This document shows, piece after piece, positions 17,334 to 48,295 of a stretch of DNA of 64,000 bases. The notes beneath the pieces are model-generated. The model was given only the letters and a program-made list of their open reading frames with translations, did not search any database and had not been told where the DNA came from. A program made the translations under genes and the position numbers. The stretch is from assembly GCA_030648515.1 (NCBI GenBank), contig JAUSHK010000005.1, positions 162,895-226,894 of the forward strand. The letters run 5' to 3'. This DNA comes from Candidatus Jorgensenbacteria bacterium. Lineage in GTDB: Bacteria > Patescibacteriota > Minisyncoccia > UBA6257 > GWB1-50-10. Every line of letters starts with the position of its first letter. The stretch's first letter is position 1.

Positions 17334-18826
<1,493 letters not shown>

Positions 18827-22256: not shown

Positions 22257-22338
22257 TTAAACACAAGAAACGCTGTTCAGCAATTGCCTTATTTCTAAAT
22301 TGCTGTATGTGATTAGATGGGGATGCTCCTTGTTCTAT

Positions 22339-22374
22339 AGCACAGGTGGTATGACATGTCATACCACCTGTGCT
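22339..22374. promoter_or_regulatory. 36-bp perfect palindrome overlapping a -10-like TATAAT in a divergent intergenic region (candidate operator)
   Basis: agcacaggtggtatgacatgtcataccacctgtgct is immediately followed by tataat (22374-22379), about 19 nt before the probable start of the HTH gene. The GGTGGTATGAC arm recurs at 22812-22835. Confidence 0.6.
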
Positions 22375-22397
22375 ATAATTATGTTATAGCTAACAAT

Positions 22398-22802: not shown

Positions 22803-22849
22803 CAGATTTTGGGTGGTATGACACGTCATACCACCGCGCTTTAAATCTG
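22803..22849. terminator. extended hairpin between convergent genes (bidirectional terminator candidate; shares an arm with the 22339 palindrome)
   Basis: cagatttt-G-GGTGGTATGAC-ac-GTCATACCACC-gcgc-tttaaatctg. The outer stem overlaps the fba stop codon. Confidence 0.55.
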
Positions 22850-33545: not shown

Positions 33546-33620
33546 TTTGTGCTGCACAGAAGCGGGAATTTAACCCGCGAGTTTTCTTTGTGAGAAAAGA
33601 CGATCGTTTTCTGCGCTGCG

Positions 33621-33690
33621 CGGCGGGAGAAGGATTCGAACCTCCGTAATCCCATTTGAATAGGATGCTCTGCCTCTAAGCTATCCCGCC
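33621..33690 (-). tRNA. tRNA with non-canonical anticodon loop (6- or 8-nt; candidate anticodons CAA/UCA), G73 discriminator
   Basis: Good acceptor (GGCGGGA/TCCCGCC), D arm and canonical T arm (GGAGG-TTCGAAT-CCTTC). The anticodon region ATCCT-ATTCAAAT-GGGAT only folds with an 8-nt loop; the alternative TCCTA/TGGGA stem leaves a 6-nt loop. Confidence 0.55.
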
Positions 33691-33718
33691 TAAGAAATAT
33701 AATGATGTAAAACTGTCG

Positions 33719-33820
33719 AGGCCCTAACTGGATTCAAACCAGTGACCATCTCGTTATCCAATCAATGCTATAAACATTGACCGGCGAGGCACTCTGACCA
33801 TAACTCTGAGCTATAGGGCC
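33719..33820 (-). tRNA. atypical 102-nt tRNA-like gene with extended (about 15 bp, bulged) anticodon arm; candidate anticodon UAU
   Basis: Perfect 7-bp acceptor (GGCCCTA/TAGGGCC), GCTCAG D-arm start and T arm ACTGG-TTTGAAT-CCAGT. The central hairpin is CCTCG-CCGG-TCAATG-[TTTATAG]-CATTGA-TTGG-(ATAA)-CGAG. Confidence 0.4.
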
Positions 33821-33824
33821 GTCG

Positions 33825-33897
33825 AACGGGGAGAAGGACTTGAACCTCCGACCTAATGCTCCCGAAGCACTTGCTCTACCAGCTGAGCTATCCCCGT
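33825..33897 (-). tRNA. tRNA-Pro (anticodon CGG)
   Basis: ACGGGGA-TA-GCTC-AGCTGGTA-GAGC-A-AGTGC-TTCGGGA-GCATT-AGGTC-GGAGG-TTCAAGT-CCTTC-TCCCCGT-T. A1-U72 and U73 are atypical for tRNA-Pro. Confidence 0.7.
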
Positions 33898-34045: not shown

Positions 34046-35503
34046 TTACGGCGTCTGCGAGTTTTGCGGCGATGGAGATGGCCTAATTGTAAATTCATTA
34101 CTTGTCCATGCGGCGCGCTCATAGCTCTGCCCTTTCAAAATTTCTGTCCAACTTGCTTCATCAGTTTTTTCTCCCGACGCGTTATAAATCACAACCGCGT
34201 TATTCGTGTACGCAAGTGAATACGAGTGCGGCCACACAACATCCAAAATCGGTTCTCCTGTATATCCGGTTTCGTTCCCAAGGAGGAAAAATTTCTTTGG
34301 TTGTATGCTTTTTCCTTCGAGTCGGCTTATGGCAACAAATGATGATTCGCTTCCCGAAGAACTTTTCTTTTTAATAGTCCACCCGGTAAGGTCTGCTTGG
34401 GTGTCGCCCGCGTTATAGAGTTCAATAAAATCAAAATCAGCGTTTCCTTCCATGCCCGCCATCACTTCGCTTATTAAAACGCGTGCTGGCTGTTGTGGTG
34501 TTTCTGACGGCGATTGCGGCGGCGGTGCTTCCGGCGTTTGTTGTAGCTGTTGCGATGCTCCACCGCTTTCCGGCTCCTCTGCGACTGATGTCTCCGCGGT
34601 AACTATGGTTCGCGGTGAATTTTGTATCTTCGGCGTTCCACCTGGAATGCTCGAGGTATACCACGAGAAATCCGTAGCACGCTCCATCGTTGCTTTTGTT
34701 TCATTGTTTCCGGCGGGCCACGCTGGCAAAGCCGATACTTTATCAATCGGGCGACACCCAGCGTCAAAAAGCGTAAGTTCTTCATCGCTGTTATTTATCG
34801 TTCCAGAAAACGCTGCGTCCGCGCCATCCGTCCAATTTTTATCCTTGCCCTGCCTTGCTAAAACAAACGTACCGCCGGCGGAGAGCACCGCATCGTTTCG
34901 TATTACCGTTTTTATCGTCCTGCTTTTATCAAACAGCTGCCAGCCGCCGATCGGAATTACTGCTGACGATATATTTTTTAGCTCAATCCATTCGCGCTGA
35001 GCACTTACAGCGTCCCCCATCCATGCAACTTCGTTAATAATTACCGGGTCGTTGGCTGGCGGCGCGCCAGTTTCCAAACAAAAAACCGGCTCCTTTTGCA
35101 CTGGTCGTGCCGGAACCGGCGGTTGCGCCATCACTACCGGCGATTCTGGTTCTTCAGTTTCAGTTGTCGTGGCTTGTTTTTTCTGTTTAACGGCGGTTTT
35201 CGCCACAGAATTTACCGCGACCGCTGTTTTTTGGGTTTTTATATTTCCTGCCGTGCGTCCCTGAGCCGCGACAATATTATTTTGTAAACCGCTTGCAGAT
35301 TTTTCCTCTACTACCTCCATATCAGTTCTGAGCGGAATTTCATCAACGAGCGTACCGGCTTCAAAACTATTTACAGGAAACAAGCTTGCTATAAGCGCGC
35401 CGTTTTTAAAACTTTCTGACTGAAACACTTCTTTTCCGGAAAAAAACCCGCTGGCGCACAAAATGATGGTCCCTAGAATAATTGCGAGTTTGTTTACTGC
35501 CAT
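34046..35503 (-). CDS. secreted lamin-tail-domain (LTD) protein
   Basis: Signal peptide. Two LTD-like segments (AWMGDAVSAQREWIELKNIS...GGWQLFD and DFDFIELYNAGDTQADLTGWTIKK), separated by Pro/Ser/Gln-rich linkers. Confidence 0.55.
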   Translation of the reverse strand: MAVNKLAIILGTIILCASGFFSGKEVFQSESFKNGALIASLFPVNSFEAGTLVDEIPLRTDMEVVEEKSASGLQNNIVAAQGRTAGNIKTQKTAVAVNSVAKTAVKQKKQATTTETEEPESPVVMAQPPVPARPVQKEPVFCLETGAPPANDPVIINEVAWMGDAVSAQREWIELKNISSAVIPIGGWQLFDKSRTIKTVIRNDAVLSAGGTFVLARQGKDKNWTDGADAAFSGTINNSDEELTLFDAGCRPIDKVSALPAWPAGNNETKATMERATDFSWYTSSIPGGTPKIQNSPRTIVTAETSVAEEPESGGASQQLQQTPEAPPPQSPSETPQQPARVLISEVMAGMEGNADFDFIELYNAGDTQADLTGWTIKKKSSSGSESSFVAISRLEGKSIQPKKFFLLGNETGYTGEPILDVVWPHSYSLAYTNNAVVIYNASGEKTDEASWTEILKGQSYERAAWTSNEFTIRPSPSPQNSQTP

Positions 35504-35556
35504 AACACGCTTGAGTTTTTTCTATTCGTTGTTTTTATTTTAACACAAAAAAATAA

Positions 35557-35588
35557 CCGCTCGGTTCACTTTACAGTGAGACGAGCGG
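35557..35588 (-). terminator. rho-independent terminator candidate
   Basis: CCGCTCGgTTCACTttacAGTGAGaCGAGCGG hairpin, followed on the minus strand by a U-rich run (plus-strand cacaaaaaaataa precedes it). Confidence 0.55.
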
Positions 35589-35602
35589 CGAAATATTGAG
35601 AG

Positions 35603-36061
35603 TTACCATCTTTTAAACGCGACTTCCAAATGAAGTCTTGCGCAAAAAAGGCAGTTTCCGAGGCTTGACCGGAAGAATGTTTTCCTCATATTCCTTACCG
35701 GCATAATGAAAAAATTATGAACGCGGTTGCGGACTCTTTTTGTAAACTCACCTAACTTGTCGGTAAATTTACTAATATCTCTTTTAAAAACTTGCCATGC
35801 TGATATTGCGAACAGCGCGGAGAAAACCGTAAGCGCAAACGGCAGATTTTGAACTTCTTGAGGAAATCGCGCATATATTACTGCCAGTAACACAATCGAT
35901 GAAGCAGAGAATGCTGTCCCTGATAAACCGAGATAGAATTTCAAAATTTCGTTTTTGCGGTTTCGTCGTAAACTCCCGTTTCTATTTGACATTGATGCAA
36001 TGGCAATCCCAACAACGGAGAACGTAGATACCATAAAAAACACCGCCAATATGATAAGCAT
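35603..36061 (-). CDS. hypothetical membrane protein
   Basis: 152 aa with 3-4 predicted TM helices. No recognisable motif. Confidence 0.4.
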   Translation of the reverse strand: MLIILAVFFMVSTFSVVGIAIASMSNRNGSLRRNRKNEILKFYLGLSGTAFSASSIVLLAVIYARFPQEVQNLPFALTVFSALFAISAWQVFKRDISKFTDKLGEFTKRVRNRVHNFFIMPVRNMRKTFFRSSLGNCLFCARLHLEVAFKRW

Positions 36062-36173
36062 ATCTTCCTCCTTTATCTTAATTTTATTTGTTTGCGCGGT
36101 TTTTAGCGCCTAACTTTATACTGGTTAAATTTTAGCATAACCCAAGTTATTTTGTCAACCCAGTTAGAAATAG

Positions 36174-36222
36174 CCTGCCCACAGGCCTTTTGGGCGCGCA
36201 GGCGCTCTGCCTGCCGGCAGGC
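36174..36222. repeat. cluster of GC-rich hairpins in a 230-bp intergenic region (candidate structured element or ncRNA)
   Basis: GCCTGcccaCAGGC, GGCGCGCAGGCGC and GCCTGCCGGCAGGC fall within 50 nt, in a region otherwise below 50% GC. Confidence 0.5.
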
Positions 36223-36290
36223 ATGGACTTCTAATGGGGTTAATACAAACAACCTAGGGGACCAGCAACGGACGGGGTTTGTTATGTTAT

Positions 36291-37217
36291 CTAATAACAA
36301 GTCCAGTTTGTGAGTTGACTTCCATCGCCACTTGCGCAGTTACATGAATACCCAGGAGGATTTGATGTTCCGTCAAAGCCAGTGGCAGGCCTGTATGTTG
36401 GGACGGAACTTGATTCATTAACACAGCCTGTATCTGACCTCCATCTAGAGTTATACGCAACGCTTCCTGTAGTGGGCGCGTTTCCAAAATCAACGGCCCA
36501 TTGGTTGTAACAGTTGCCGACTATTCCAAAGTAGTCCGGTTTAACAGGAAGCCATTCTCCTCCGCCTCCACCGCCCCCGCCTGGGTTTAAGGAAGCTGTA
36601 CTACAATCCATATCCCACGGATCAAACCTCGTGTTCTTAGCAACAATGCTGCCACCGCAGTCAGCTTCGCTATACCATTGCGTTTCTGTGTAAGTAGCTT
36701 TATACGCCCCATCCCACGATTCCGGAGTGTGGTTAGTCCCAAGTGACATGTTAACATCAACATCTGAATCGCAATTATCGTCCCAATTACTGTTACAGGA
36801 TCCTGTAGCGCCTGGGTTTATACTCGCTATTCCATCATTACAATCACTGCCACCGTTGTTAGTAGAAAGACACGCCGTTGTCGCCGCCCCATCACTATCC
36901 GTATCTGCCGTCACACAACTGCTTCCGTTCCAGCATTCACCGACGGCACAGCATTGCGCCGAAGTCGTGCTCGGCGGTAGATTGCTCAAAAATGTTGACC
37001 ACTCGCCCGCTGTATTCGTCGGAACAAAATATGTATCGCCCGAGGTGTTATTAATTTTTCTGCACGCGTCGCTTCTGCTTGCCGCGTTAATCGTTATATT
37101 TGAACTTGGCGTGCTCTGGTATCCTTCGCTTAATGTATTAATGCCGTAAAGCGCCAATGGCAGAAAGAGAATAACCAGCGCGAAAATGAGCCGGTATTTT
37201 TTTATAAACTCAAGCAT
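36291..37217 (-). CDS. secreted Cys-rich hypothetical protein
   Basis: Signal peptide, many Cys in CxxGxC-type spacing, and a GGGGGGGEW run. No recognisable catalytic motif. Confidence 0.45.
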   Translation of the reverse strand: MLEFIKKYRLIFALVILFLPLALYGINTLSEGYQSTPSSNITINAASRSDACRKINNTSGDTYFVPTNTAGEWSTFLSNLPPSTTSAQCCAVGECWNGSSCVTADTDSDGAATTACLSTNNGGSDCNDGIASINPGATGSCNSNWDDNCDSDVDVNMSLGTNHTPESWDGAYKATYTETQWYSEADCGGSIVAKNTRFDPWDMDCSTASLNPGGGGGGGGEWLPVKPDYFGIVGNCYNQWAVDFGNAPTTGSVAYNSRWRSDTGCVNESSSVPTYRPATGFDGTSNPPGYSCNCASGDGSQLTNWTCY

Positions 37218-37219
37218 TT

Positions 37220-38299
37220 CTATCTTATTTTTTTACGAAGCGCCTCAAGTTCTATTTTCAATTTATTAATCTGCTTTTGCTGTTCCTTTACTGCCTCAAT
37301 AAGCGGCGCAACTAAGTTTGCGTACTGAAGCGACATCACGCCGGTTGCTTCATCGGTTGAGACAAGCTCTGGAAAAACTTTTTGCGTATCTTGTGCGATG
37401 AGCCCTATGCTCCCACTTCCATCTTTTTTCCATTCAAATGAAACGCCCTGCAACTGCATTATTTTCTGAAGCGAGTTCTGAAGTGGCTTTATATTTTCTT
37501 TCATCCTGACATCGGATGAATAATAAAACGCTGTTGCCTGAACATTTCCGGTTACGGCTAATTTATATGAGCCCGGGTTTGTGTTTCCTATGCCAACGCT
37601 ATAACTCGTTGAGGACGCATAAAGGTTGGAACCGGAAAGAGTCCAGTGGTTAGACACGTTTGCTGCGGCTGTAGTTTGAATAGTATTGTCTGAAAATACA
37701 ATTCCATAACTTGAACTCGCGATTCGCATATTTCCGTTTGATATAGTGCTTGTACCAACTATGTGAAGAGGCGTTGCAGGATTAGTTGTCCCGATACCTA
37801 CCAGGCCAGCGGAACTGATTCGCATTACTTCAGTGCTTGAGCCAAGGCGCACGCCACTTTGAACATCAAGTTTATACGCCGGCGCGTTAGTCCCGATGCC
37901 GATGCGTTCATTTGTAGCATCAACAAAGAGAACTGTATTAGCCGACGCGGCTCCCTGAAAAGTGTAGTTGCCTTTTCCTACTACCGAGCCAAAAACTCCG
38001 GTTGAAACGTTCCCGGCGGACGTCGTTGTAGCTACGGACCCGCTTACGGCTGATGTCTGCGTGGTGCCGTCAAAAAATTTAATTCCGTTTAATGCATAAA
38101 TCGTGCCGGCTCCCTGGCTTGTTGTTGTGCCCACTGAAAGACTTCCGAGAATAGTGGTTGTTGACGCGTTTAATATTCTATAAACACCATCAAAATCAAG
38201 GTCGCTGCCAACGTTTATGGCCGCCGTCAGAGAAACAGTTCCTAGAAAAAGCGTGACGGCTAAAACTATAAAAATTACTCTTTTATTTTTTTCTCCCAT
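37220..38299 (-). CDS. tail-fibre-like surface protein with C-terminal intramolecular chaperone (peptidase S74-like) domain
   Basis: Signal peptide and GIGTxxPxxxL-type beta-helix repeats (RIGIGTNAPAYKLDV, LVGIGTTNPATPLHIV). The C-terminus LQGVSFEWKKDGSGSIGLIAQDTQKVFPELV...LVAPLIEAVKEQQKQINKLK matches the endosialidase chaperone / S74 domain pattern. Confidence 0.6.
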   Translation of the reverse strand: MGEKNKRVIFIVLAVTLFLGTVSLTAAINVGSDLDFDGVYRILNASTTTILGSLSVGTTTSQGAGTIYALNGIKFFDGTTQTSAVSGSVATTTSAGNVSTGVFGSVVGKGNYTFQGAASANTVLFVDATNERIGIGTNAPAYKLDVQSGVRLGSSTEVMRISSAGLVGIGTTNPATPLHIVGTSTISNGNMRIASSSYGIVFSDNTIQTTAAANVSNHWTLSGSNLYASSTSYSVGIGNTNPGSYKLAVTGNVQATAFYYSSDVRMKENIKPLQNSLQKIMQLQGVSFEWKKDGSGSIGLIAQDTQKVFPELVSTDEATGVMSLQYANLVAPLIEAVKEQQKQINKLKIELEALRKKIR

Positions 38300-38352
38300 T
38301 TTAAAATCGTTTAGTTATATGGCCTTTTATCTTGTTTATTATACCACGAGCT

Positions 38353-38892
38353 TTATTTCAATTTATTAACAATGAGCGTTCCACCCACTTTATCTCGTCC
38401 AACGCACGAATCGCGGCAAAAGAATTCATATTGGCCGTAGGAAGCAGCGCTAAATTGCAGGCGACCAGTTTCTCCTTTTAATACCTTCCTGTATGAGCCG
38501 GTGTCCGGCAAGAAAAAGTCGTAAGCATTGTCAATCGCTTTTATTCTTAAATCCACTGTATCGCCCTCGTTTACAACAATCACCGACGGCACGTATTTAT
38601 TATTATTCCCTTGGATTTCAAATACGCGAAAAGCGTACGAGCCTTGTTTGTTCACGCTAATTGGCACAGCAACTCCAGTGGGTGTTGATGTCGCGCCATC
38701 CGGAGTTTCTATGTCTATAGAAAGTTTTTCCCTTGTGCCTCCCTGCACGCTTGGAAGCGCGTCTGAATTCCACGGGCGGAACCCATCAAGCTTGCGCGTT
38801 GATTTTTCATAATAACTCCAGCTGAAATAGCCGGCTATAAGCAGGACTATTAAAAGCCCTATAATTAGATCGCGTTTGACGTTAGAGTCCAT
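38353..38892 (-). CDS. membrane-anchored cupredoxin-fold paralog (Cu ligands absent; CxxxC present)
   Basis: N-terminal TM helix, then a beta-sandwich domain ending YEFFCRDSCVGRDKVGGTLIVNK. Paralogous to 40448, 41037 and 46657. Confidence 0.45.
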   Translation of the reverse strand: MDSNVKRDLIIGLLIVLLIAGYFSWSYYEKSTRKLDGFRPWNSDALPSVQGGTREKLSIDIETPDGATSTPTGVAVPISVNKQGSYAFRVFEIQGNNNKYVPSVIVVNEGDTVDLRIKAIDNAYDFFLPDTGSYRKVLKGETGRLQFSAASYGQYEFFCRDSCVGRDKVGGTLIVNKLK

Positions 38893-38923
38893 TCTAATTT
38901 AGTTTTATTATATCAAACCGGCT

Positions 38924-40441
38924 TTATAAAAAACTTACTTTGTAATCAAGACGCAGGCGGTCAAGAAACGGCGTGGTTTCTGTGTCGCTGTCAGGAGTGA
39001 ATCGCGCGCGCCACAAAAGCCGGCTTCTGTTTTCTCCGCTAAAACTAACGTCTTGATTAAGCGTGGCAGGCACCCATGTTACGCCATCACTTGAAAGCGC
39101 AAACTCAACTTTCCCTCCTGAAGTAGAAAAATCTAGTTCTGAAATTTTTGCGCTTCGTACTTCAGCCGGATAGTTGTTGATATTCGCCGATGTTACTTCA
39201 CGCGATTTGCTTTTATCAAAGCCGTCGTCTTTTATCTCCCAAAATTCTGTATTCAGCGCATTGCCAGTTTTCGCGCGTAAAACCACCTCGCCTTTTTGAG
39301 TTGCCTCAATATTAAACGAGGCATTTGAAGCGTTCCGTAATGGCCCAACGAGAGACGTGAGGTCGGCTATGCCTTGGATTTCTCTGGTTTTATTTTGAAA
39401 TAGTTTTATAAGTTTTGGATTGCCGGACGTGAGGCTGAAAATATACCACGCAGTAGATTCCGAATCGTTCCCGACTTGCGTACGCAGAACAACTGGCTGA
39501 AAACCATCATCCATAAGTCGCGAGTGAAAGAAGTATGAAAGATCTGTTGGTGTTTCGCCCCCACGAATTCGATACGCGATGCCTTCATACGCGCCATACA
39601 TCGCAATCCAATCATTGTCGTTCCCGCCGAAACCAAGCGTCCCTGGGTACTGTGAAACAAAAGGATTCCCCTCCCCGCCAAACACCTTACTGAAATTCTT
39701 GCCGTCAAAGTAAAATGCCCATCCCTCATATGTTCCATCATTGCGCCGAGTCACTGCGCCAAGCAAAAGCAACGCATCTAAGTTCCCGACGGAAATATTT
39801 ACTAGCTGTTTTCCTTGTAAGTCTGCTGGAAGCGAAAGCTGGCTACCTTGAAATAAAAGCTCAAAATCGCGCTGGGAAAAACATTTACTGCCCGCGCAAC
39901 GGACGTCCTCTCCATTCGACCCGCGTTCAACGAACCCGTTCGGCTGGCTCAGAGCAGGTCTTCCCGCGAAAGCCGTGATTTTTTGCGCTGATATTACTGT
40001 CGGAAACATAAACGCCGTAGCCGACCTGTCCTGGTGCATTGTCGTTTTTGACTGGTCAATCCATCCGACGCCAGAAAAAAGATCAGTAAAACTTGAGAGC
40101 GTGAGATTTTCTTCTGCTTTCTGTTGAACGGCGAATGGCGATCCTGGCGGAAGCGGCTCTTTGGTGATTACTGGAGCAATACTTGGCTTTGTGCCAAATT
40201 GAATTGATAAAGGCGGTCTTATTCCTGATGGTGCCGTTCCGATTTTCTGCTCCGTTTCAAATGTCCGTAAATTTGTAAGAAGCTGTTTCCCAAGTCCAGC
40301 CTCAAACCATGAGCGGAGCAAACTTGCCCCGCCGATTATAAGCACTGCGAACCCGAGAATAAGAACCATCGTAGTAAATGCAACGCCGACGCCGGAGAAG
40401 ACGCGGCGCAGTGAATCACGGTTTTTAAAAACTCGATTCAT
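38924..40441 (-). CDS. large membrane-anchored extracellular hypothetical protein
   Basis: 505 aa with an N-terminal TM helix and a long extracytoplasmic domain. No recognisable motif. Confidence 0.45.
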   Translation of the reverse strand: MNRVFKNRDSLRRVFSGVGVAFTTMVLILGFAVLIIGGASLLRSWFEAGLGKQLLTNLRTFETEQKIGTAPSGIRPPLSIQFGTKPSIAPVITKEPLPPGSPFAVQQKAEENLTLSSFTDLFSGVGWIDQSKTTMHQDRSATAFMFPTVISAQKITAFAGRPALSQPNGFVERGSNGEDVRCAGSKCFSQRDFELLFQGSQLSLPADLQGKQLVNISVGNLDALLLLGAVTRRNDGTYEGWAFYFDGKNFSKVFGGEGNPFVSQYPGTLGFGGNDNDWIAMYGAYEGIAYRIRGGETPTDLSYFFHSRLMDDGFQPVVLRTQVGNDSESTAWYIFSLTSGNPKLIKLFQNKTREIQGIADLTSLVGPLRNASNASFNIEATQKGEVVLRAKTGNALNTEFWEIKDDGFDKSKSREVTSANINNYPAEVRSAKISELDFSTSGGKVEFALSSDGVTWVPATLNQDVSFSGENRSRLLWRARFTPDSDTETTPFLDRLRLDYKVSFL

Positions 40442-40447
40442 AATCCG

Positions 40448-41026
40448 CTACTGCACCACCATTGTTCCTCTTTCGCTTCCGTGATTTGGAACATCGCAGT
40501 GAAATGTATATGTGCCGCGCGCCGGAGCGTTGAAGGTTATGGCGCGCGTCTCGTTCGGCCCGATTCCCATCGCAACAGCAGAAAGAGACGGATCGTCAAA
40601 TTTAAATACGTGCGTTTTCTCATCGGTTGATGAAATCGCAAGTGTTATTACGTTTCCAGCTGACACGGAGAATGTCGCGGGCAAAAAACCGCCCGTCGAC
40701 ACCGAGAGTTTTATTGCTTTCGAGGGCAGTTGTTTTTCTGAAATAGAATTAGATTGTTGTGGCGCTTCCTGCGTGCCGGGCACTGCGTTTAATTTTACTG
40801 GGGCACCATTTTGCGTCACTACCTTCCCCGTTTCTGAAACCGGGCTGGCCCCAGGCACCAGTGGAACAAGTAAGGTATTTTTTGTTGCTGTTTGTGTCCC
40901 GGAAACAGTTCCGTTGTTTGGAGTTGTTGGCGATTTTGAGTTGCTTCCCCAGACCGCAAAATAAATTATCGCGATAGCGCCTACTACGCCGATTACAATC
41001 CAGGCTTTTGAGTTATTTTCTTCCAT
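40448..41026 (-). CDS. membrane-anchored cupredoxin-like protein with a candidate type-1 copper site
   Basis: TM anchor, STPG-rich linker, then KTHVFKFDD...GTYTFHCDVPNHGSERGTMVV. This is a His...Cys-x4-His-x6-Met pattern in a cupredoxin-like (PF13473-type) domain. Confidence 0.55.
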   Translation of the reverse strand: MEENNSKAWIVIGVVGAIAIIYFAVWGSNSKSPTTPNNGTVSGTQTATKNTLLVPLVPGASPVSETGKVVTQNGAPVKLNAVPGTQEAPQQSNSISEKQLPSKAIKLSVSTGGFLPATFSVSAGNVITLAISSTDEKTHVFKFDDPSLSAVAMGIGPNETRAITFNAPARGTYTFHCDVPNHGSERGTMVVQ

Positions 41027-41036
41027 TCGCTATTTA

Positions 41037-41618
41037 TTATTTTACAGTCATTTTTCCCACAAGACCTTGCGCGGCCTGGCCAGGAACTGCCGAGCGGAAA
41101 TCATATACCCCAGGAGCCGGCGCATTGAAATTGATAACCCTTGATTGGCCGGGCGGCACGCCAACCGTAACTGCCGAGAGTGACGAATCGTCAAATGCAA
41201 AAAGATAACTTTGACCATCAAGCGAAGTGACTGCGAGTGTCACCACGGAGCCCGACCGTACTTCAAATGTTGACGGAGAAAACCCTTTTGATGATGCCGT
41301 GATTTTTATCGCTGTCGGCGGAATGCTTCCTTGTCCGACTACAACTGATTGCTTCGGCGCATCGGCAGAGCCCGGCGCTGCGTTATTTTGTGCGGTTTTA
41401 CCCGATTCAGTGATTACTTCTCCGCCCTTAACCTGACTAATACCCGGCAATGTTGTCCCTGGTGTTGCTATAGGCATTCCCCCTCCAGGCACTACGGTTC
41501 CGCTACTAAGATTATTTCCTGCTGGAGTCCATCGAGTAAAAATAACTAGTGCGAGAACTGCAACGGCGGCAACTACTCCGATTATAATCCATATTATTGT
41601 TGTTTTGTTTTCTTCCAT
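41037..41618 (-). CDS. membrane-anchored cupredoxin-fold paralog (metal ligands lost)
   Basis: Same architecture as 40448. The C-terminus YDFRSAVPGQAAQGLVGKMTVK lacks Cys and His. Confidence 0.5.
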   Translation of the reverse strand: MEENKTTIIWIIIGVVAAVAVLALVIFTRWTPAGNNLSSGTVVPGGGMPIATPGTTLPGISQVKGGEVITESGKTAQNNAAPGSADAPKQSVVVGQGSIPPTAIKITASSKGFSPSTFEVRSGSVVTLAVTSLDGQSYLFAFDDSSLSAVTVGVPPGQSRVINFNAPAPGVYDFRSAVPGQAAQGLVGKMTVK

Positions 41619-41797
41619 AGAATTAACTTATAACTAATAATGTATAACCTATGACCCATGACGATTGCTGTTATTTGTTATTGGTTATTTGTTATACGTT
41701 GCTTTTATTTTTGACCTTTCATTGACGGCCGACGACCTATGACATCCAATGGCCGTAATTAGTTCCTTGTCGTTTGTCATTAGTTATTAGTCATTTG
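41619..41797. repeat. AT-rich intergenic region with several short direct and inverted repeats (candidate promoter/regulator-binding region)
   Basis: ttatttgttat x2, three ATGAC-centred copies (cctatgac, ccatgacg, cctatgacat), and ttgtcattagtta/ttagtcatttgtcac. Confidence 0.45.
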
Positions 41798-44227
41798 TCA
41801 CCTGAATATTACATCACTTCCGAAAATCACGTTACTTCCGAGCGAGATTTCCTGCGATTCGCCCGTTGTGAATGACGTATATGAACCATAACTTGTTCCT
41901 CCGGAATTTGTGGCAAAGGCACGAACATAATACGTTACGCCCGCGGAAAGTTCCGATACTAACAAACTATATTCCCCCGTTCCGTATGACCCGCTTTCGC
42001 TAACTGTCCATGTGTCGTCTTGCGTAAGGCCATATTTGAAACCGCGAGCCGTTGCATTTGCTCCGCCGGTAGCTGTAATATTCCCATTTAATGTTGAGCT
42101 CGATACCCCAATGTTTGTTATACCGCTTGTTGTTATTGTCGGTGCGACTGCTGGAGTTGCAAACGAAACATACGAACCATACGCCGTACCTTGAGCGTTC
42201 GTAGCAAAAGAACGCACATAATAAGTTGTTCCAGGCGAAAGTCCGGTCAAAGAACCCGTGTACGCGCCGGTATCGTAAGTTCCGCTTTCGCTCACTGTCC
42301 ACGTGTCGGTCTCAGTCAAGCCGTATTTGAAACCACGAGTAGTCGGCGACGAACCTCCTATATCCGTTATGTTTCCATTCGCAGTTGCCGTTGTTGAGCT
42401 TACGCTTGATGCCGCTTGCGTTGTCACTACCGGAGATGCTGTAATAGTCGCAAAAGAGACATAGGAGCCATAACCAAAACTAGTAATAGAATATTGGTAA
42501 ACTTTCCCCTGACCAATATCAAGAAGGTACATACTGGTTCCGTCTGGCTTGAAATATGAACTTGTAAGCGTTACAGAAGGACTGTTTGCAAAACTTACAC
42601 TGTCGTAACTCGCAGTTGAAACATCCCATGGAGTAGATAGGGTATATTGATATGAGTTCGCCACGCCATATCCGGCGCTGAACATTTTAGTTCCGTCCGA
42701 ATTAAAGAATACAGCGTCTGAACGGCTTAACTGGCTCCCGACAGAAAAGGACTTACTATCATAACTTGCTGTAGAAACATCCCACGGGGTTGATAAGGAA
42801 TATTGGGTGACAATTTTCGTATCATAAGGGCTTACATACATCTTAGTTCCGTCTGATTTAAAATAAGCGTTAATTGGGGATCCTGAAGCCGTGCTCATAA
42901 ATTTAGTATCATAGGTTGCGCTTGTCACGTCCCAGGCGGAACTTAATGAATATTGGAATACTTTTTGTGCACCGTAATCAGTCACGTACATTTTAGTTCC
43001 GTCACCTTTAAAGAATACTCCAGCTGTAAAATAAGATTGGCCTGCCACGCTATAACTTGAATTATAACTTGCCGTAGAAACATCCCACGGGGTTGATAAT
43101 GTATATTGGCCAACTATATGATAAGTAGCGTCGTATGAAGTAATATACATACTGGTTCCATCTGGCTTGAAAGAAACACCAAACTTGTTATCTTTAGCAT
43201 TCGTTATAGCGTAGTTCACGCTGTCATAACTTGCCGTTGATAGGCTCCAAGGCGTCCCTTTCATAGCAAACGCACGGGAATAGTAAGTAGTACCAGGTGA
43301 AAGCCCGGTTAACGAACCCGTGAACGCCCCCGTTCCAAATGAACCATCTTCGCTTATACTCCACGTGTCTGTTTCCGTGAGGCCGTACTTGAAACCGCGA
43401 GTTGTGGCGTTGGCTCCATTGGTAGCAGTGATGTTGCCGTTCCCAGTCGCAGTTGTCGATCCAACACTGGATGCCGCTTGTGTGGTGACTGTCGGCGCGA
43501 TTGCAAGTGGATAAGCCAAACCATTTCCAGAATTATATAAAGTTGTTACTTCAGTAGAAGTTAAAGCCCTACTCCACACTCCTATTTCATCCATATCTCC
43601 TGAATAAAACCATGCAGTTTCGTCGTAACTTGCTCCAAAAGTAACATCTGCTCCAATATCTATTGAACCAAGCCCTGTTAATTGTGTGCTTTGTATTCCA
43701 TCTAAATAAATATACGCTGTTGCTCCTGAATAAGATAAAACTACATGGTGCCAGGCGTTATCGGTTGGAGTTGCTAAATTACTTTCTTTTACTGTTGCGT
43801 TGTCCAAAAACCCAAGAGTGTTTGCTGCTCTGTTTAAATGAAACATAAATCTTGGCGAATAACTATCAAGTAAAGATCTATATGTTCCGCCCGCTGTTTT
43901 TATCCACATTGAAATTGAATAGGCAGTTCCCAACGATGACAATCCGTTCACTGAAATATAATCATTCCCGCTAAGCGTATACGCCGTCCCTATTTTTCCG
44001 GTAGTGCCGTATGTCATTGTGGCACTGACTGTCCCAGTATTTGCTCCGGCGCTATCCGCCGCGTTTCCGCTTGCTTCGTCAAATTTGTAATAAGAAACCA
44101 AACTATCGGTTAAAGCGGCTGCCTTCGTTGTAAAAATGCCTGCTCCGAAATATGTAAGAATGAGCGCGACGACTGCGAGGACGCTGGTTATTTCGTGCGC
44201 AAGTTTTTTTATTTTAGTTTTATTCAT
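41798..44227 (-). CDS. giant membrane-anchored surface protein with LamG domain, YxLSTPWDVSTASYD repeats and Ig/FN3-like repeats
   Basis: TM anchor, then a LamG region (LVSYYKFDEASGNAADSAG...YIYLDGIQ). Then at least 6 copies of the Q(Y)xLSTPWDVSTASYDS repeat and 3 copies of the TTQAASSVxSTTATxNGNIT...RGFKYGLT repeat. Confidence 0.6.
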   Translation of the reverse strand: MNKTKIKKLAHEITSVLAVVALILTYFGAGIFTTKAAALTDSLVSYYKFDEASGNAADSAGANTGTVSATMTYGTTGKIGTAYTLSGNDYISVNGLSSLGTAYSISMWIKTAGGTYRSLLDSYSPRFMFHLNRAANTLGFLDNATVKESNLATPTDNAWHHVVLSYSGATAYIYLDGIQSTQLTGLGSIDIGADVTFGASYDETAWFYSGDMDEIGVWSRALTSTEVTTLYNSGNGLAYPLAIAPTVTTQAASSVGSTTATGNGNITATNGANATTRGFKYGLTETDTWSISEDGSFGTGAFTGSLTGLSPGTTYYSRAFAMKGTPWSLSTASYDSVNYAITNAKDNKFGVSFKPDGTSMYITSYDATYHIVGQYTLSTPWDVSTASYNSSYSVAGQSYFTAGVFFKGDGTKMYVTDYGAQKVFQYSLSSAWDVTSATYDTKFMSTASGSPINAYFKSDGTKMYVSPYDTKIVTQYSLSTPWDVSTASYDSKSFSVGSQLSRSDAVFFNSDGTKMFSAGYGVANSYQYTLSTPWDVSTASYDSVSFANSPSVTLTSSYFKPDGTSMYLLDIGQGKVYQYSITSFGYGSYVSFATITASPVVTTQAASSVSSTTATANGNITDIGGSSPTTRGFKYGLTETDTWTVSESGTYDTGAYTGSLTGLSPGTTYYVRSFATNAQGTAYGSYVSFATPAVAPTITTSGITNIGVSSSTLNGNITATGGANATARGFKYGLTQDDTWTVSESGSYGTGEYSLLVSELSAGVTYYVRAFATNSGGTSYGSYTSFTTGESQEISLGSNVIFGSDVIFR

Positions 44228-44230
44228 GTT

Positions 44231-46240
44231 TTATTTAATAATAAAGCTTGCTTTTTCATTTTGATCTTTCGCTAATGTGGGCCAATTTTTCCAATCAAAT
44301 CGCTTTCCGACGAGGCGGAAGGAGATGGGAATAGTTTGTAGTGAGTAGTGAGTAGTGAGTAGTTGAGCGGAGAAGATGACTTTGTTGCCGGAGATTGCGT
44401 ATGAAACTGGGGCTGATACTCCGATTGGGGTGGCAAAAACATCAACATTGTCAGCGGAAAAATCCACGGCGTTTTTCCAGACCCACAGGTCCGAGCCCAC
44501 CTCGACTTTAGAAAAGTCGATGACGTGCTCGTAGGAGTTTGTCTCCCTACGGGAGATGTCCCGTAGGGACATAGTTGGGACAAGAGTCGCGCGACCGATA
44601 AATTCTTCACGGACGCCTCCGGCGATTGCCGACGCGTATGTTGAATATTTTTTCCCATCAATTTCATAGAGCGGATCGATAGTCGCCGCAGTGATTTTAT
44701 TTACTCCTACAAGATTATTGTTATTCATATTCAAATTTGTGATCGCCGCGCCGCCGAATGAAAGATTGCCGTTCAGCGACGATGTTCCGGTGACGAGAAA
44801 TGTTCCTTCAACAGAGAGCGTGTTTGTCGGAGTTGTCGTTGCGATGCCGACTGCTCCGGAAGTCGTGAGCGAGTATGGCATCTGCCCCGCATCGGGATCA
44901 AAATAATACGAGGAATCCGCAACGTCGTAATAAACGCCGGCCGAGAGATTGCCGTGGATGATGGCACTTTTTACGAACGATCCTGCCGGGCCGACTTCCA
45001 AGTATTCCGTCGGGGATGTGGTTGCGATACCAACTTTCCATGCCGTGCTTGATGCGTATATCGTGCTTCCGTTGAGCAACCAGAGTCCGGCGCTACCACC
45101 CGAGATAGCAGAGTCAACATAACTTTTCGTTGTGGCATCACTATCGCCTACTGGCGTCCCCACGACTACTGGCTGGGAAAAATACGAAGTGCCATTTACT
45201 TCAAATTTGTATGACGGGGAAGTAGTCGCTATACCGACGTTTCCGCCGTTTGGATTTAATAACAATGGTATTTCTGTCGCGAGATTACTTGAGTCATAAC
45301 CCTGTAGCCATGCCCCATATGGGGATGAAAGAGCTACGCCCATATCTAGAGCACCATTTGTGTTTCCGCTCCAAATACGAAATAACCCATTAGTAGTTGT
45401 TCCGGATGTTGCGGGTCCCACTGCAGCACCTGCAATAATTAATTTTGCATTTGGAAAATTTAATCCACCCCAAGTGTTGACTCCAATAGATGCGCTGCCA
45501 ATAACATCTAATTTATTTACCGGAGTACTGGTACCAATTCCAACATTTCCTGCTGTCGTCGCAAGCGTTGTTGTGCCGGTTATGTTTGTTGTACCAAGCG
45601 TGTAAAATGTCGCCGGCAAATTGCTTGTTGTTGAAGTACCAACAGCTAGACCGAGCGGAAACGCGTAATTTGCAGTTGTAAATGGACCGCCTAAAACATT
45701 CGCGGCGTCAATACTTGAAAGATACGCGCCCGTCCCGCGAAACGCGCCGTTTACTGTGCGTATGTCGCCCCCAACAATTAGCCGTTCATCAACGCCTGTT
45801 GAGGTCGCTTTAATGCCGATTCCAATACTGCCAAACTTATTAATGTCCATAACGACAAATCCTGGTAGGTTATCTGGCGCCCCTGATTCTCGATAAAGCT
45901 GGAGATTGCCAAAATTGCGGGCCGACCAAATATATGAATGGCCCGAGGTAAGGTTCTTTACGCCGACTCCAGGACTTGTTGTTGAAGCTACTATAAACAC
46001 GTACCCGTGCGACGACGAGCCGCTTTCCGTTGAGGTGGTGTTAAAAGTACTAACTGGGGAAGGCGCCGTTGTTCCAAAACCGATATTTAAATTTGAATCA
46101 ACACTAAACAGTCCCCCGCCGGTGCCCGCGGATTGGGTAGGACCGATGAAGGCACGGACAGTTTGTAGTGAGTAGTGAGTAGTGAGTAGTTCGAAAACGA
46201 GAATTACTACTACAAAGAAAGTTCTAGGGAAGTTTTTCAT
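44231..46240 (-). CDS. tail-fibre-repeat surface protein (contains the R repeat at both ends and the H element)
   Basis: Hydrophobic N-terminus, multiple VGIATTSPxxxLEV-type repeats, and a long Gly/Thr/Ser-rich beta-helix-like body. R copies lie at 46161-46192 (codons 17-27) and 44333-44364 (near the C-terminus). H lies at 44518-44555, antisense. Confidence 0.5.
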   Translation of the reverse strand: MKNFPRTFFVVVILVFELLTTHYSLQTVRAFIGPTQSAGTGGGLFSVDSNLNIGFGTTAPSPVSTFNTTSTESGSSSHGYVFIVASTTSPGVGVKNLTSGHSYIWSARNFGNLQLYRESGAPDNLPGFVVMDINKFGSIGIGIKATSTGVDERLIVGGDIRTVNGAFRGTGAYLSSIDAANVLGGPFTTANYAFPLGLAVGTSTTSNLPATFYTLGTTNITGTTTLATTAGNVGIGTSTPVNKLDVIGSASIGVNTWGGLNFPNAKLIIAGAAVGPATSGTTTNGLFRIWSGNTNGALDMGVALSSPYGAWLQGYDSSNLATEIPLLLNPNGGNVGIATTSPSYKFEVNGTSYFSQPVVVGTPVGDSDATTKSYVDSAISGGSAGLWLLNGSTIYASSTAWKVGIATTSPTEYLEVGPAGSFVKSAIIHGNLSAGVYYDVADSSYYFDPDAGQMPYSLTTSGAVGIATTTPTNTLSVEGTFLVTGTSSLNGNLSFGGAAITNLNMNNNNLVGVNKITAATIDPLYEIDGKKYSTYASAIAGGVREEFIGRATLVPTMSLRDISRRETNSYEHVIDFSKVEVGSDLWVWKNAVDFSADNVDVFATPIGVSAPVSYAISGNKVIFSAQLLTTHYSLQTIPISFRLVGKRFDWKNWPTLAKDQNEKASFIIK
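44333..44364. repeat. 32-nt heptamer-array repeat R, copy 2
   Basis: agtttgtagtgagtagtgagtagtgagtagtt is identical to 46161-46192. Confidence 0.9.
44518..44555. repeat. double-hairpin element H, copy 2 (inverted relative to copy 1)
   Basis: gtttgtCTCCCtacGGGAGatGTCCCgtaGGGACatag is the reverse complement of the 11792-11829 architecture. The plus-strand ATG at 44536 opens a 37-codon ORF MSRRDIVGTRV... Confidence 0.85.
46161..46192. repeat. 32-nt heptamer-array repeat R, copy 3
   Basis: Identical to 44333-44364. Lies just inside the 5' end of ORF 44231..46240 and 45 nt downstream of the avd-like gene's stop. Confidence 0.9.
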
Positions 46241-46614
46241 AGACTGTTTACTAATTTATTCAACATTTTCATCACTTCACTTAATAGTTTTTGAGATTCG
46301 CCACAAAATTCGGTATTGTTGCAAAAATTTAGTTGTCTTGCAATTTCAATTTGAGTTTCTAGCTCAGCGCCGGACCCATAAGCGTTTAGTAAAAAATGTC
46401 GAAAATCTTTTCGTGAACTTCTTCTGCTTCCTTCGGCGATGTTTGAAGGTATTGAAACTACGGCTCGCTTCATCTGTATCCCAAGCGCGTATGTTTCCGT
46501 TTGTGGAAATTGATTAACTAATTTGTAAATTGATTTCACTAATTCCATGGATTTATTCCAAACTATTAAATCTTTGTATGAGCTTATTTTATCTGTTGAG
46601 TTTTGTTGTTCCAT
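46237..46614 (-). CDS. four-helix-bundle protein (23S rRNA intervening-sequence protein / Avd-like, TIGR02436 family)
   Basis: YKDLIVWNKSMELVKSIYKLVNQFPQTETYALGIQMKRAVVSIPSNIAEGSRRSSRKDFRHFLLNAYGSGAELETQIEIARQL is the canonical pattern of this family. Confidence 0.8.
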   Translation of the reverse strand: MEQQNSTDKISSYKDLIVWNKSMELVKSIYKLVNQFPQTETYALGIQMKRAVVSIPSNIAEGSRRSSRKDFRHFLLNAYGSGAELETQIEIARQLNFCNNTEFCGESQKLLSEVMKMLNKLVNSL

Positions 46615-46617
46615 TTT

Positions 46618-46648
46618 CTACTCACTACCAACTACAAACTACTCACTG
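46618..46648. repeat. inverted heptamer-array repeat R-prime, copy 2
   Basis: ctactcactaccaactacaaactactcactg lies 4 nt upstream of the avd-like start codon. It is inverted relative to R at 46161-46192. Confidence 0.8.
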
Positions 46649-46656
46649 CTTCATTC

Positions 46657-47181
46657 CTATGGAATGACAATCAGCTGTCCCTGAATCTTTCCTCCCGACG
46701 GGCAGTGATCACGGCACTCGAAGAGAAACGAACCAACTGTGCCGGCTTTAAAACTGATTTGTTTTGTCTCTCCTTTTGGCGCTGTTATGTAAAATCCGAA
46801 ACTTTCCGAAAACATATCGTACGCATTATCCACGGCGGTAAAGTCAATCGTCACAATATTTCCGCGCCCAACAGTGAGCACTGCCGGATCGTAGCCATTT
46901 TTTGTCGCTTTTACTCCGTAAAATCCCTGCCGTTTTGTTTCTCCCGGGTCGGGTTTGATATCGACAGCGGGAGGCGTAAGTGCTGCGTTTTTAGGAACTT
47001 CCGGCGTGAAAGCCGGAATAATTTCCGGCACAGCCGGCCTTTCATTTGTTGATGTCGCCGTTTGCGTAGTTCCGCCTGTCCCCGGCAATGCCGCCTTTTG
47101 GCGCGCAAAAAAACCGGCCGCCGCGATACCAATAATAACAAGTACGAGCGCAACAATAAGCCCGAGATCTTTTTTGCTCAT
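46657..47181 (-). CDS. membrane-anchored cupredoxin-fold paralog
   Basis: TM anchor, TP-rich linker, then TIDFTAVDNAYDMF...SFLFECRDHCPSGGKIQGQLIV. Paralogous to 38353. Confidence 0.5.
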   Translation of the reverse strand: MSKKDLGLIVALVLVIIGIAAAGFFARQKAALPGTGGTTQTATSTNERPAVPEIIPAFTPEVPKNAALTPPAVDIKPDPGETKRQGFYGVKATKNGYDPAVLTVGRGNIVTIDFTAVDNAYDMFSESFGFYITAPKGETKQISFKAGTVGSFLFECRDHCPSGGKIQGQLIVIP

Positions 47182-47326
47182 CTCACCTAGAATTATATCA
47201 AATGGGCGCCCTAACTTTTACTGAGCGTCCAAAATGCGGTCGGGATGCGTTGGTATATAATGAAATAGCAAACAGGAAATCATAGCGGCGGGAAAAAATA
47301 TTATTTATCATTCATAATCCACCCAT

Positions 47327-48295
47327 ATGCGCGCATTAAAGATTCTTTTTTGGGCCTGTATCGGCACCGTGCTTCTTCTCGCTTCAATCATCGCGGCGTT
47401 TTCAAATCGCGCAAGCGCGGCGACAAATATAAGTTCAACCGTAACTGAACATTTTGCATGGAACGATACTATGGGGTGGATTGATTTTTATACACCAAAC
47501 ACTGTTTGGGTGTGGGGGTACAAAGTTGAGGGGTACGCAAGTTCAAGCGTCGGCGATGTGTCGCTTGATTGCACAACAACAAGAAACGGGAATATATGTG
47601 CTACTTCGAATTATGGAATCTGTAATGGAGTTTACTCCACGTCAACTGGGTGCACCGCGGACGCTTCAGGAGATTTAAGCGGCTACGCATGGAACGATAC
47701 AATGGGGTGGATTAGTTTCAGTTGCTACAATCACGGCAATTGCTCTCCGTCTTATGGAGTATCGGTGAATGGAAACACCGGCGAATTCAGCGGCTACGCA
47801 TGGAATGACACTGTCGGGTGGATTAGCTTTAATTACACGAACCCCGGGTCTCCGACTTCCACGACCTATTTTGTAAATACAAATTGGCGGGCCACTTCGA
47901 GTATCGGCTACATTGAATCCGCCACAGTTGATACACAAGTTGTTGGCGGTGCAACGCTAAATAGTATTACGTGGAAAGGCACAAAGAGCGCGAACGGAGT
48001 CTCAAGCGCGACGTATGTTGATTTCCAAGTCGCTGCCTCAAATAGCTCCGCCGGACCATGGACATTTGAAGGCCCGGACGGAAGTGAAACCGATTATTAC
48101 GGGGCGTCATGCTCTGATGCTGGGTTTACCGGAGGAACAGCAATAAACGGGGCCGACCCCGACGTGCCGATTTGCATTAACCCCGCGCAAGTCGCAAACT
48201 ATCGGTATCTCCGATACAAAGTCCGCCTGCGAAGCAACCTGATTCAAAATGACACACCGAGGGTTGATGATGTTATTTTAAACTGGAGCATATAA
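47327..48295 (+). CDS. secreted repeat protein (4x YAWNDTMGWISF-type repeats)
   Basis: Signal peptide and four copies of (F/Y)AWNDTxGWI(D/S)F, each followed by Cys-containing spacers. A -10-like TATAAT lies at about 47256. Confidence 0.5.
   Translation: MRALKILFWACIGTVLLLASIIAAFSNRASAATNISSTVTEHFAWNDTMGWIDFYTPNTVWVWGYKVEGYASSSVGDVSLDCTTTRNGNICATSNYGICNGVYSTSTGCTADASGDLSGYAWNDTMGWISFSCYNHGNCSPSYGVSVNGNTGEFSGYAWNDTVGWISFNYTNPGSPTSTTYFVNTNWRATSSIGYIESATVDTQVVGGATLNSITWKGTKSANGVSSATYVDFQVAASNSSAGPWTFEGPDGSETDYYGASCSDAGFTGGTAINGADPDVPICINPAQVANYRYLRYKVRLRSNLIQNDTPRVDDVILNWSI

Follow-up and report, generated by a model that had tools for sequence, protein, structure and literature searches.

What do ten neighbouring genes, most of them for proteins with export or anchor signals, do for a patescibacterium? 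Much of bacterial diversity belongs to the Patescibacteria. These bacteria presumably live attached to host cells, and few of the molecules of this contact are known. We analysed a stretch of 64,000 nucleotides from Candidatus Jorgensenbacteria bacterium (assembly GCA_030648515.1, contig JAUSHK010000005.1, positions 162,895 to 226,894), which we call the window; all coordinates refer to it. A sequence-only reading, made without database searches, had described the region 36291-48295 as an island of surface proteins and a candidate host-attachment module. The locus is a chromosomal operon of this member of the Patescibacteria (Candidate Phyla Radiation, CPR), and the ad hoc island gives way to an operon with a conserved gene order. 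With a probability of about 50%, we consider that it encodes an envelope apparatus displaying trimeric surface fibres, probably for attachment to a host or a substrate.

The ten genes are co-directional on the minus strand and occupy 36.3-47.2 kb (47181 to 36291). The gaps between them measure 2-53 nt, with one exception of 179 nt. In the order of transcription, the genes and the main domain are the following.

46657-47181, minus strand: CupD, the first gene of the operon, for a single-pass membrane-anchored cupredoxin-fold protein (Pfam Cupredoxin_1, 2.1e-5).
46237-46614, minus strand: IVP, a four-helix-bundle protein of the 23S-rRNA-intervening-sequence family.
44231-46240, minus strand: Fib669, an exported fibre whose N-terminal signal and conserved N-domain are followed by tail-fibre-type repeats and a C-terminal knob.
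44234-44803, minus strand: the C-terminal domain or knob of Fib669 (residues 480-669), conserved, about 190 aa.
41798-44227, minus strand: LamG809, with a signal or anchor, a LamG lectin-like domain, three FN3-like modules and beta-propeller-like repeats of about 50 aa.
41037-41618, minus strand: CupC, membrane-anchored and a paralogue of CupB; its Cys and second His ligands are lost.
40448-41026, minus strand: CupB, a membrane-anchored cupredoxin of the blue-copper type (Cupredoxin_1, 2.6e-13).
38924-40441, minus strand: U505, a protein found only in Patescibacteria, with a transmembrane (TM) helix and a disordered Pro-rich linker, together with a beta-propeller and, at the C-terminus, a beta-sandwich; marker gene of the operon.
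38353-38892, minus strand: CupA, a membrane-anchored cupredoxin of the CupA/CupD clade, with C-x3-C and without His ligands.
37220-38299, minus strand: S74fib, exported and tail-fibre-like, with an S74 intramolecular-chaperone domain at its C-terminus.
36291-37217, minus strand: CysRich, the last gene; its exported product is rich in Cys and has a weak MopE-like metal-binding motif.

The open reading frames (ORFs) named in the sequence-only reading all lie where it had placed them, and each domain was recovered with Pfam, NCBIfam and PHROGs. Three details needed correction. The gene for the LTD protein is outside the range given for the island, the supposed LamG giant has only 809 aa, and just one cupredoxin has a complete set of copper ligands. 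The LamG protein matches Pfam Laminin_G_3 (5.4e-20) and carries FN3 fragments and the repeats D1, D3, D5, D7 and D8.

The export signals were examined with a Kyte-Doolittle hydrophobicity scan, which does not separate a signal peptide from a TM anchor. A hydrophobic N-terminal segment is present in 12 of 13 consecutive genes (34046-48295). The claim that every gene bears such a signal holds for all of them except the IVP gene. An intracellular location of the proteins had been named as a result that would overturn the attachment proposal, and export or anchor signals were found instead. Both fibres, Fib669 and S74fib, carry the segment. In Fib669 it aligns with the signals of its homologues, which end in A followed directly by F(I/V)GP.

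We then asked how far the operon is conserved. U505 has 31 homologues, and all the source-given names are Patescibacteria lineages. A scan with one genome per species gave 43 U505 loci, whose titles are nearly all Patescibacteria lineages or an unclassified "bacterium". We called ORFs in the related loci (numbered with an L below) and searched them with the window proteins. There are 40 species loci with a complete U505. A knob-bearing fibre lies directly upstream of it in 26 of them. Cupredoxins were seen on its upstream side in 21 loci and on its downstream side in 19, and contig ends cut many of the other loci short. The core order is cupredoxin, knob fibre, blue-copper-type cupredoxin, U505, cupredoxin and S74 fibre. 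It is kept, whole or in part, in the 40 species loci.

The position on the chromosome is also conserved. To describe it, two units next to the operon are needed.

47327-48295, plus strand: YAWND, a secreted protein, divergently transcribed, with three AWNDTxGWI repeats; a gene of the chromosomal backbone.
34046-36061, minus strand: the neighbouring unit, with a 3-TM protein (35603-36061) and the LTD protein (34046-35503).

A Brennerbacteria genome shows CupD, IVP, fibre, CupB type, U505, CupA and S74-type fibre in the same order as in the window. This cluster adjoins YAWND-CysRS-DnaB-RecR. In L049 the backbone matches the window from YAWND through RecG, and in L046 (Liptonbacteria) the cluster is joined to SpoU-DUF192, the left flank of the window. 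The operon occupies the same site in L002, L040 and L049. L050 (Parcubacteria LiPW_41) has the same flanks, PGA_cap-GAPDH ... DUF192-SpoU on one side and YAWND-CysRS-DnaB-RecR on the other. Here they enclose about 6.7 kb of unrelated genes in place of the operon. The slot thus differs between members of the wider group, and in that respect the word island holds.

The accessory genes are less constant. No orthologue of LamG809 was found in 48 related loci, and the Cys-rich protein has a relative in L046 only. Both are lineage-specific cargo. Fibre length and accessory genes differ between species, which is in favour of the earlier reading. The three AWNDT(M/V)GWI repeats reported for YAWND were confirmed, but the protein had been counted as a member of the module, and this assignment fails. 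YAWND stays with CysRS-DnaB-RecR even without the operon (L050, L051) and almost always adjoins cysS. It belongs to the YAWND-CysRS-DnaB-RecR housekeeping backbone. Among the best 120 of 606 matches, it shows 45-69% identity and a near-constant length (about 320 aa). YAWND is a large and uniform Patescibacteria family without a Pfam match.

The LTD and 3-TM genes probably form a separate transcription unit, because a strong promoter-like site lies at 36158-36129, upstream of the 3-TM gene. In relatives, LTD homologues are often near the operon.

The conserved position bears directly on a different origin. The locus could be a degraded prophage, or a phage-derived island that kept only its tail-fibre genes. 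The strong PHROG tail-fibre matches of S74fib, weak matches to Phage_phiTE_241_C in relatives and the tRNA genes close by (33620-33897) would fit such a history. However, the S74 fibre is the sole island protein that matches tail proteins in PHROGs. The absence of capsid, terminase and integrase genes was borne out: none appeared in a Pfam scan of 41 of the about 56 larger window ORFs, nor in a PHROGs scan of the ten island proteins. Likewise, the five annotated related loci contain no capsid, terminase, portal or integrase gene and no further gene of a phage. Phage genes at the flanks of related loci had been named as decisive evidence for a prophage, and the flanks are CysRS-DnaB-RecR and SpoU-DUF192 instead. 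The GC content of the island (0.44-0.48) is like that of the rest of the window, and order and position are kept in 40 species. The knob and U505 have no relatives in IMG/VR among 2.9 million viral contigs. We rule out a prophage by the lack of phage genes in the ORFs scanned, the conserved position and order, and the lack of relatives in viral contigs; a phage-derived remnant is highly improbable.

An integrative island at the tRNA genes was also considered. The tRNAs at 33620-33897 are oriented away from the island, which lies on their 5' side rather than beyond the 3' ends. We found no att-like repeat. The tRNA orientation, together with the absence of such a repeat and of an integrase, rules out this origin.

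The nature of the fibres makes attachment plausible, because the S74 fibre matches both the mosaic adhesive trimer (MAT) fibres of Bdellovibrio and phage tail fibres. S74fib scores 63 bits with PF13884 (cutoff 22; 2.7e-17) and matches a PHROG tail fibre at 2e-34. Its SDxxxK motif is SDVRMK, at residues 262-267, and the protein has a C-terminal coiled segment. Among structures in the PDB, it matches Bd2133 (8OND, 1.6e-7) and the T4-type long tail fibre 6F45 (8.6e-7). With phmmer, residues 56-230 align to Bd2133, and the two share MRIxxxGxVGIGTxxP and IKFPDGSVQTTAA-type motifs. Fib669 shares fibre repeats with S74fib (BLASTP 9e-8). The earlier description of adhesins resembling phage receptor-binding proteins is thus supported, with fibres related to both the Bdellovibrio MAT adhesins and phage tail fibres.

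The fibre homologues in Patescibacteria conserve the N-terminal 250 aa or so. Their shaft varies in length, from about 170 to more than 3000 aa across the family. The knob forms a family of 1187 clusters at 50% identity, without a Pfam model. It lies at the C-terminus, or within few residues of it, in all 150 members listed. In 150 diverse knob domains, the indels are confined to two sites. The AlphaFold model of the knob (predicted local distance difference test, pLDDT, of 76) gave weak matches to the reovirus sigmaC and sigma1 heads, Helix pomatia agglutinin, and pyocin and adenovirus fibre tips. These matches, though weak, seem to share one direction, trimeric attachment heads and lectins. 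Of the lectin-like domains previously proposed, the LamG domain is present, and the knob resembles viral attachment heads and an H-type lectin only weakly.

The same conservation can be read in another way. The operon may build a general envelope structure of Paceibacteria, such as a surface layer, a sheath or wall-spanning fibres, which serves integrity or shape and not host recognition. The core is widely conserved and chromosomally fixed beside housekeeping genes. Moreover, the fibre shows conservation, not diversification, in its knob and its N-domain, and the neighbour YAWND is highly conserved. On the other hand, a structure of this kind does not sit well with a fibre length that varies more than tenfold, nor with the turnover of accessory lectin-like genes. 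The closest characterised relatives are predator adhesins and phage receptor-binding fibres. Besides, some relatives with the same backbone have no operon at the site. We regard a purely structural role as unlikely, at perhaps the level of a serious minority opinion.

The cupredoxins are the other regular component. The four cupredoxin-fold paralogs that had been proposed are confirmed. Three of them (38353-38892, 40448-41026 and 41037-41618) are above the Pfam gathering score of Cupredoxin_1. CupD (46657-47181) has 24.9 bits, below the 27-bit cutoff, and its alignment places it clearly in the CupA/CupD clade. Only one of the four, CupB, has the full set of copper ligands (His140, Cys177, His182 and Met189); CupA, CupC and CupD do not. 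Most CupB orthologues in the aligned loci keep the set, as a His...Cys-x4-His...Met motif. When aligned with plastocyanin and auracyanin, the Cys and His of CupB are in register. As judged from these alignments, CupB has the predicted ligands of a type-1 blue copper site. The Met stands 9 residues after the second His (7 in the CupB of the window), an unusual spacing for type-1 sites. In the CupA/CupD clade, Y-D replaces the first His, and a C-x3-C-P motif is reminiscent of CuA domains. NCBIfam gave weak matches to the CuA regions of NosZ and CoxB.

U505 was modelled with a pLDDT of 84. The model shows the TM helix, the disordered Pro-rich linker, the beta-propeller and the beta-sandwich. The family alignment has no catalytic signature and no invariant His or Glu.

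The conserved cupredoxins may, as judged from their ligands, have a role with copper or in redox chemistry. In its full form, the idea is that the operon encodes an extracellular copper/redox system, in which U505 and the cupredoxins (CupA and CupD being derived from CuA-type domains) serve electron transfer, copper handling or oxidative modification at the cell surface, with the fibres as substrates or scaffolds and not as adhesins. The conserved ligands of CupB, their alignment with those of plastocyanin and auracyanin, and the NosZ and CoxB matches speak for it. The cupredoxins are also the most regularly recurring element of the operon, and in L049 a Cu-oxidase_4 gene lies 1.6 kb from the cluster. 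Nevertheless, the CupA/CupD clade is without the His and Met ligands, and CupC is without Cys and His. U505 offers no invariant His or Glu for a metal or catalytic centre, the window holds no respiratory or other redox genes, and the Met spacing is atypical. A system devoted to copper or redox chemistry is therefore, in our estimate, a less probable explanation, which deserves to be kept in view.

We prefer the attachment apparatus, which might work as follows. The operon would encode a vertically inherited envelope apparatus, with fibres that have relatives among the tail fibres of phages and the MAT adhesins of Bdellovibrio, a predator. Its genes suggest three pairs, each with a single-pass membrane-anchored cupredoxin followed by a large exported protein: CupD with Fib669, CupB with U505, and CupA with S74fib. 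Each cupredoxin-fold protein would thus be the partner of the large protein encoded next. The fibres, probably trimeric, would be exported by Sec. Their likely orientation puts the conserved N-domain near the membrane, the shaft of variable length beyond it, and the tip in a distal position. The tip of Fib669 would be the conserved knob, lectin-like and with two indel-prone loops. That of S74fib would be released by its S74 chaperone, predicted to be autoproteolytic. U505 may add a membrane-tethered ectodomain of beta-propeller and beta-sandwich on a flexible linker. The LamG/FN3 protein and the Cys-rich protein would be lineage cargo. Most probably, the whole would bind glycans or proteins on the surface of a host cell or a substrate.

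Several points weigh against this apparatus. The hydrophobicity scan places signal peptides and TM anchors in one class. The Foldseek matches of the knob have E values of at least 4e-3 and TM-scores of 0.26-0.58. Receptor-binding tips are usually the most variable part of a fibre, and here different species share a conserved knob. Only the gene order suggests that the cupredoxins pair with the large proteins. Finally, an adhesin has no need of the redox or copper function to which the conserved copper ligands of CupB point, and the adhesin reading leaves this conserved cupredoxin of the blue-copper type unaccounted for.

The operon also contains a gene of a different kind. The IVP gene lies in a cassette between CupD and Fib669. 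Its repeats, and related modules inside the knob, are listed here.

46617-46649, minus strand: R' arm, the 5' arm of the IVP cassette, with GCAGTGAGTAGTTTGTAGTTGGTAGTGAGTAG on the mRNA strand.
46160-46191, plus strand: R arm, the 3' arm of the IVP cassette, with AGTTTGTAGTGAGTAGTGAGTAGTGAGTAGTT, within codons 18-28 of Fib669.
44536-44575, plus strand: H module, a twin-hairpin repeat, in frame at loop site 1 of the knob, encoding MSLRDISRRETNS.
44333-44364, plus strand: R module, in frame at loop site 2 of the knob, encoding QLLTTHYSLQT.

The protein matches 23S_rRNA_IVP (PF05635) with 122 bits (1.3e-35) and TIGR02436 at 3e-35. The arms at 46617-46649 and 46160-46191 are inverted and built of a GTAGTGA heptamer. 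When the minus strand was folded as RNA, they paired as a stem of about 35 bp that encloses the IVP ORF, in both the minimum-free-energy and the centroid structure (z = -4.1). This is the architecture of an rRNA intervening sequence (IVS), here inside a protein-coding operon. The only rRNA gene of the window is the 16S at 17328-18826, and the cassette is not in it. A scan with Rfam gathering scores gave no known RNA family at the R and H elements.

The R/H repeat family described from the sequence is real, since no shuffle reached the observed counts. The 3' arm codes for the c-region of the Fib669 signal peptide (LLTTHYSLQT). The R module at 44333-44364 is 100% identical to 46160-46191, and the H module at 44536-44575 shares 93% identity with 11791-11830 read as the reverse complement. 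In the knob of the window, these two modules occupy exactly the two indel-prone sites, both in frame. Repeat-mediated variability had been expected here. What we see instead are arms of IVS-type cassettes, in frame in leader peptides and in two knob loops. This in-frame placement at the knob loops is unexplained.

Related loci show comparable arrangements. In seven of them (L002, L011, L016, L017, L026, L032 and L038), the DNA at the knob sites has copies elsewhere in the same locus. These copies are often in intergenic regions of the operon or beside IVP genes, and the repeat sequence is species-specific. Inverted arms flank the IVP genes in L002, L011, L012, L023 and L026. The arms of relatives consist of genome-specific 7-nt units, often beside a GC hairpin. 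Over the 40 species loci, 17 IVP genes lie inside the operon span and 1 outside, with about equal amounts of sequence inside and outside; these events are not independent, and a p-value for them is indicative only. The cassette is orthologous in Jorgensenbacteria GW2011_GWA1_48_11, where the arms are better kept than the ORF. The R' arm is kept in the orthologue of L012.

The IVP gene had been called Avd-like, and this name would suggest the target locus of a diversity-generating retroelement (DGR), in which an Avd-like protein helps to mutagenise the C-terminal domain of the fibre. There is a weak similarity to Avd (PHROG Avd 1.5e-7), and the variable loops are located in the C-terminal domain of a surface protein. 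The scores, however, are far below the cutoffs: 26 bits with bAvd (cutoff 40) and 26 with NF033474 (cutoff 80), against 122 bits for the IVP family. No reverse transcriptase (RVT) was found in the Pfam scans of the 41 ORFs or in the annotated related loci. Neither is there a pair of template and variable repeats in the window, where the only long repeats are the internal FN3-like ones (69-73% identity). Moreover, the loops vary by indels of repeat modules and not by adenine-specific substitutions. The gene is thus better described as that of an IVS-type cassette protein. The lack of a reverse transcriptase in the scanned ORFs, the missing repeat pair and the sub-threshold Avd scores rule out a DGR, and we give this explanation almost no weight.

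The IVS-type cassettes and their arms might be functionally coupled to the fibre operon. They could act through RNA processing that sets the stoichiometry, or through a remodelling of the two exposed knob loops that is independent of a retroelement. The remodelling could proceed by insertion, gene conversion or slippage of 7-nt units. This idea arises because IVP genes are enriched in the operon, the arms are better conserved than the ORF, and the modules lie at the indel sites of the knob. We hold it as doubtful.

In the orientation that occurs within genes, all three reading frames of the heptamer units are open. Selection for tolerable insertions could explain this. With open units, a change of copy number would be a frameshift switch. 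We searched metagenomes for such phase variants. An exact 25-mer from the 5' end of Fib669 had no match in the JGI (Joint Genome Institute) metagenomes. A 25-mer of (GTAGTGA)n matched more than 120 contigs, and 0 of 80 loci checked encode relatives of IVP, cupredoxin, knob or U505. The matches are therefore unrelated microsatellites, and no copy-number variants of the heptamer were recovered.

Other copies of these elements were observed outside the operon of the window. An "empty" R/H/R' element lies at 11710-11845 (minus strand), around the start of a LamG-pilin gene (in the region 10446-11860), and R encodes part of the prepilin leader. The three repeats form a stem around the ribosome-binding site and the start codon (z = -4.1). 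The start of this gene is probably the ATG at 11753, which gives MSKKLLTTHYSLLTNRVG followed by QSLVEVL..., and not 11810. In L012, from a related Jorgensenbacteria genome, an R-type heptamer repeat lies within the coding region of the LTD gene (3818-3842), a further in-frame case in a surface protein. In L023 (Paceibacterota), five IVP-family ORFs occupy successive intergenic positions of the same operon (5767-10526). Three of them are full-length, and two full-length cassettes are near-identical.

The rest of the window holds rpoB, RodA, genes of glycolysis and of the pentose-phosphate pathway, CysRS, DnaB, RecR, RecG, eight tRNAs and a type IV pilus locus with LamG-pilins. The pilus genes include PilB (14324-16045) and PilC (13055-14257). 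Adjoining them, 7567-9921 encodes a VirD4/TraG-like coupling ATPase of 784 aa with an N-terminal TM segment. The 16S rRNA gene (17328-18826) is alone, with no 23S or 5S nearby; its Rfam match is full-length and no insertion was detected. For the tRNA gene at 33620-33690 (Rfam tRNA, 55 bits), ARAGORN assigns no anticodon ('ca' at position 33). Near-perfect palindromes of 24 nt (GGTGGTATGACATGTCATACCACC) at 22336-22377 and 22812-22835 flank a small ORF (22356-22784, 142 aa). The palindromes may be paired operators, or the whole may be a small mobile unit.

The operon is a concrete candidate for the contact apparatus of these bacteria, with phage-like and MAT-like fibres, a beta-propeller ectoprotein and cupredoxin partners. 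The U505, knob and YAWND families can be used as markers in metagenomes. The regular pairing with cupredoxins is unexpected, and one cupredoxin type keeps blue-copper ligands in organisms that are largely without respiration. If the cassettes do act on the operon or on the knob loops, PF05635, a widespread family with no known function, would have a role outside rRNA.

Finally, we compared the operon with known systems. The MAT fibres of Bdellovibrio bacteriovorus (Caulton et al. 2024, PMC10769870; PDB 8OND, 8OJN and 8OML) are S74 and non-S74 surface fibres, which the parts of that report used here implicate in prey recognition. Like the fibres of the operon, they are chromosomal, bear signal peptides, resemble phage tail fibres and belong to a bacterium that lives on other bacteria. 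Both systems have an S74 group with SDxxxK and a non-S74 group, and S74fib matches the shaft of Bd2133 with its capping-loop repeats (E 1.6e-7). The differences concern the context. In Patescibacteria, the fibre genes share a fixed operon with those for membrane-anchored cupredoxins and for a beta-propeller protein, and those parts of the MAT report describe no such partners. The non-S74 fibre here has at its end a conserved knob that forms a separate family, without a Pfam model. Unlike Bdellovibrio, the organism here is presumably a monoderm CPR bacterium.

The S74 tail fibres and tailspikes of phages (K1F endosialidase, the L-shaped fibre of T5, the T4-type 6F45) share with S74fib the S74 domain, the SDxxxK motif, the PHROG matches and the C-terminal coiled segment. 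However, S74fib has no phage context, and a Sec-type signal or anchor replaces the baseplate-attachment domain.

For the cassette, the nearest system is the IVS of 23S rRNA. PF05635 IVS have been reported in 16S and 23S rRNA insertions of CPR bacteria (bioRxiv 10.1101/2024.02.27.582315). In both cases a PF05635-family ORF (122 bits here) lies inside inverted repeats that fold to a long stem. The cassette of the operon differs because it is placed between protein genes, and its 3' arm codes in the next gene. In addition, solo arms are in frame in a prepilin leader and in two knob loops.

CupB can be compared with plastocyanin, auracyanin and amicyanin. It has the cupredoxin fold signature, the aligned His, Cys and His, and a conserved Met after them. 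In contrast to these type-1 copper proteins, CupB has an N-terminal TM anchor, a long linker and an unusual Met spacing. Its context is a fibre operon, in a window without a visible respiratory chain, and three of the four paralogues are without the ligand set.

In the literature on cupredoxins or tail-fibre adhesins of CPR bacteria, we found nothing specific to this operon. For U505, the fibre knob and YAWND, there is no Pfam or other curated model, and we found no paper. New features are the fixed operon, with its cupredoxin partners and U505, a family of knobs and an association with IVS-type cassettes. By sequence similarity, the closest known kind appears to be the class of trimeric adhesins formed by MAT fibres and phage tail fibres.

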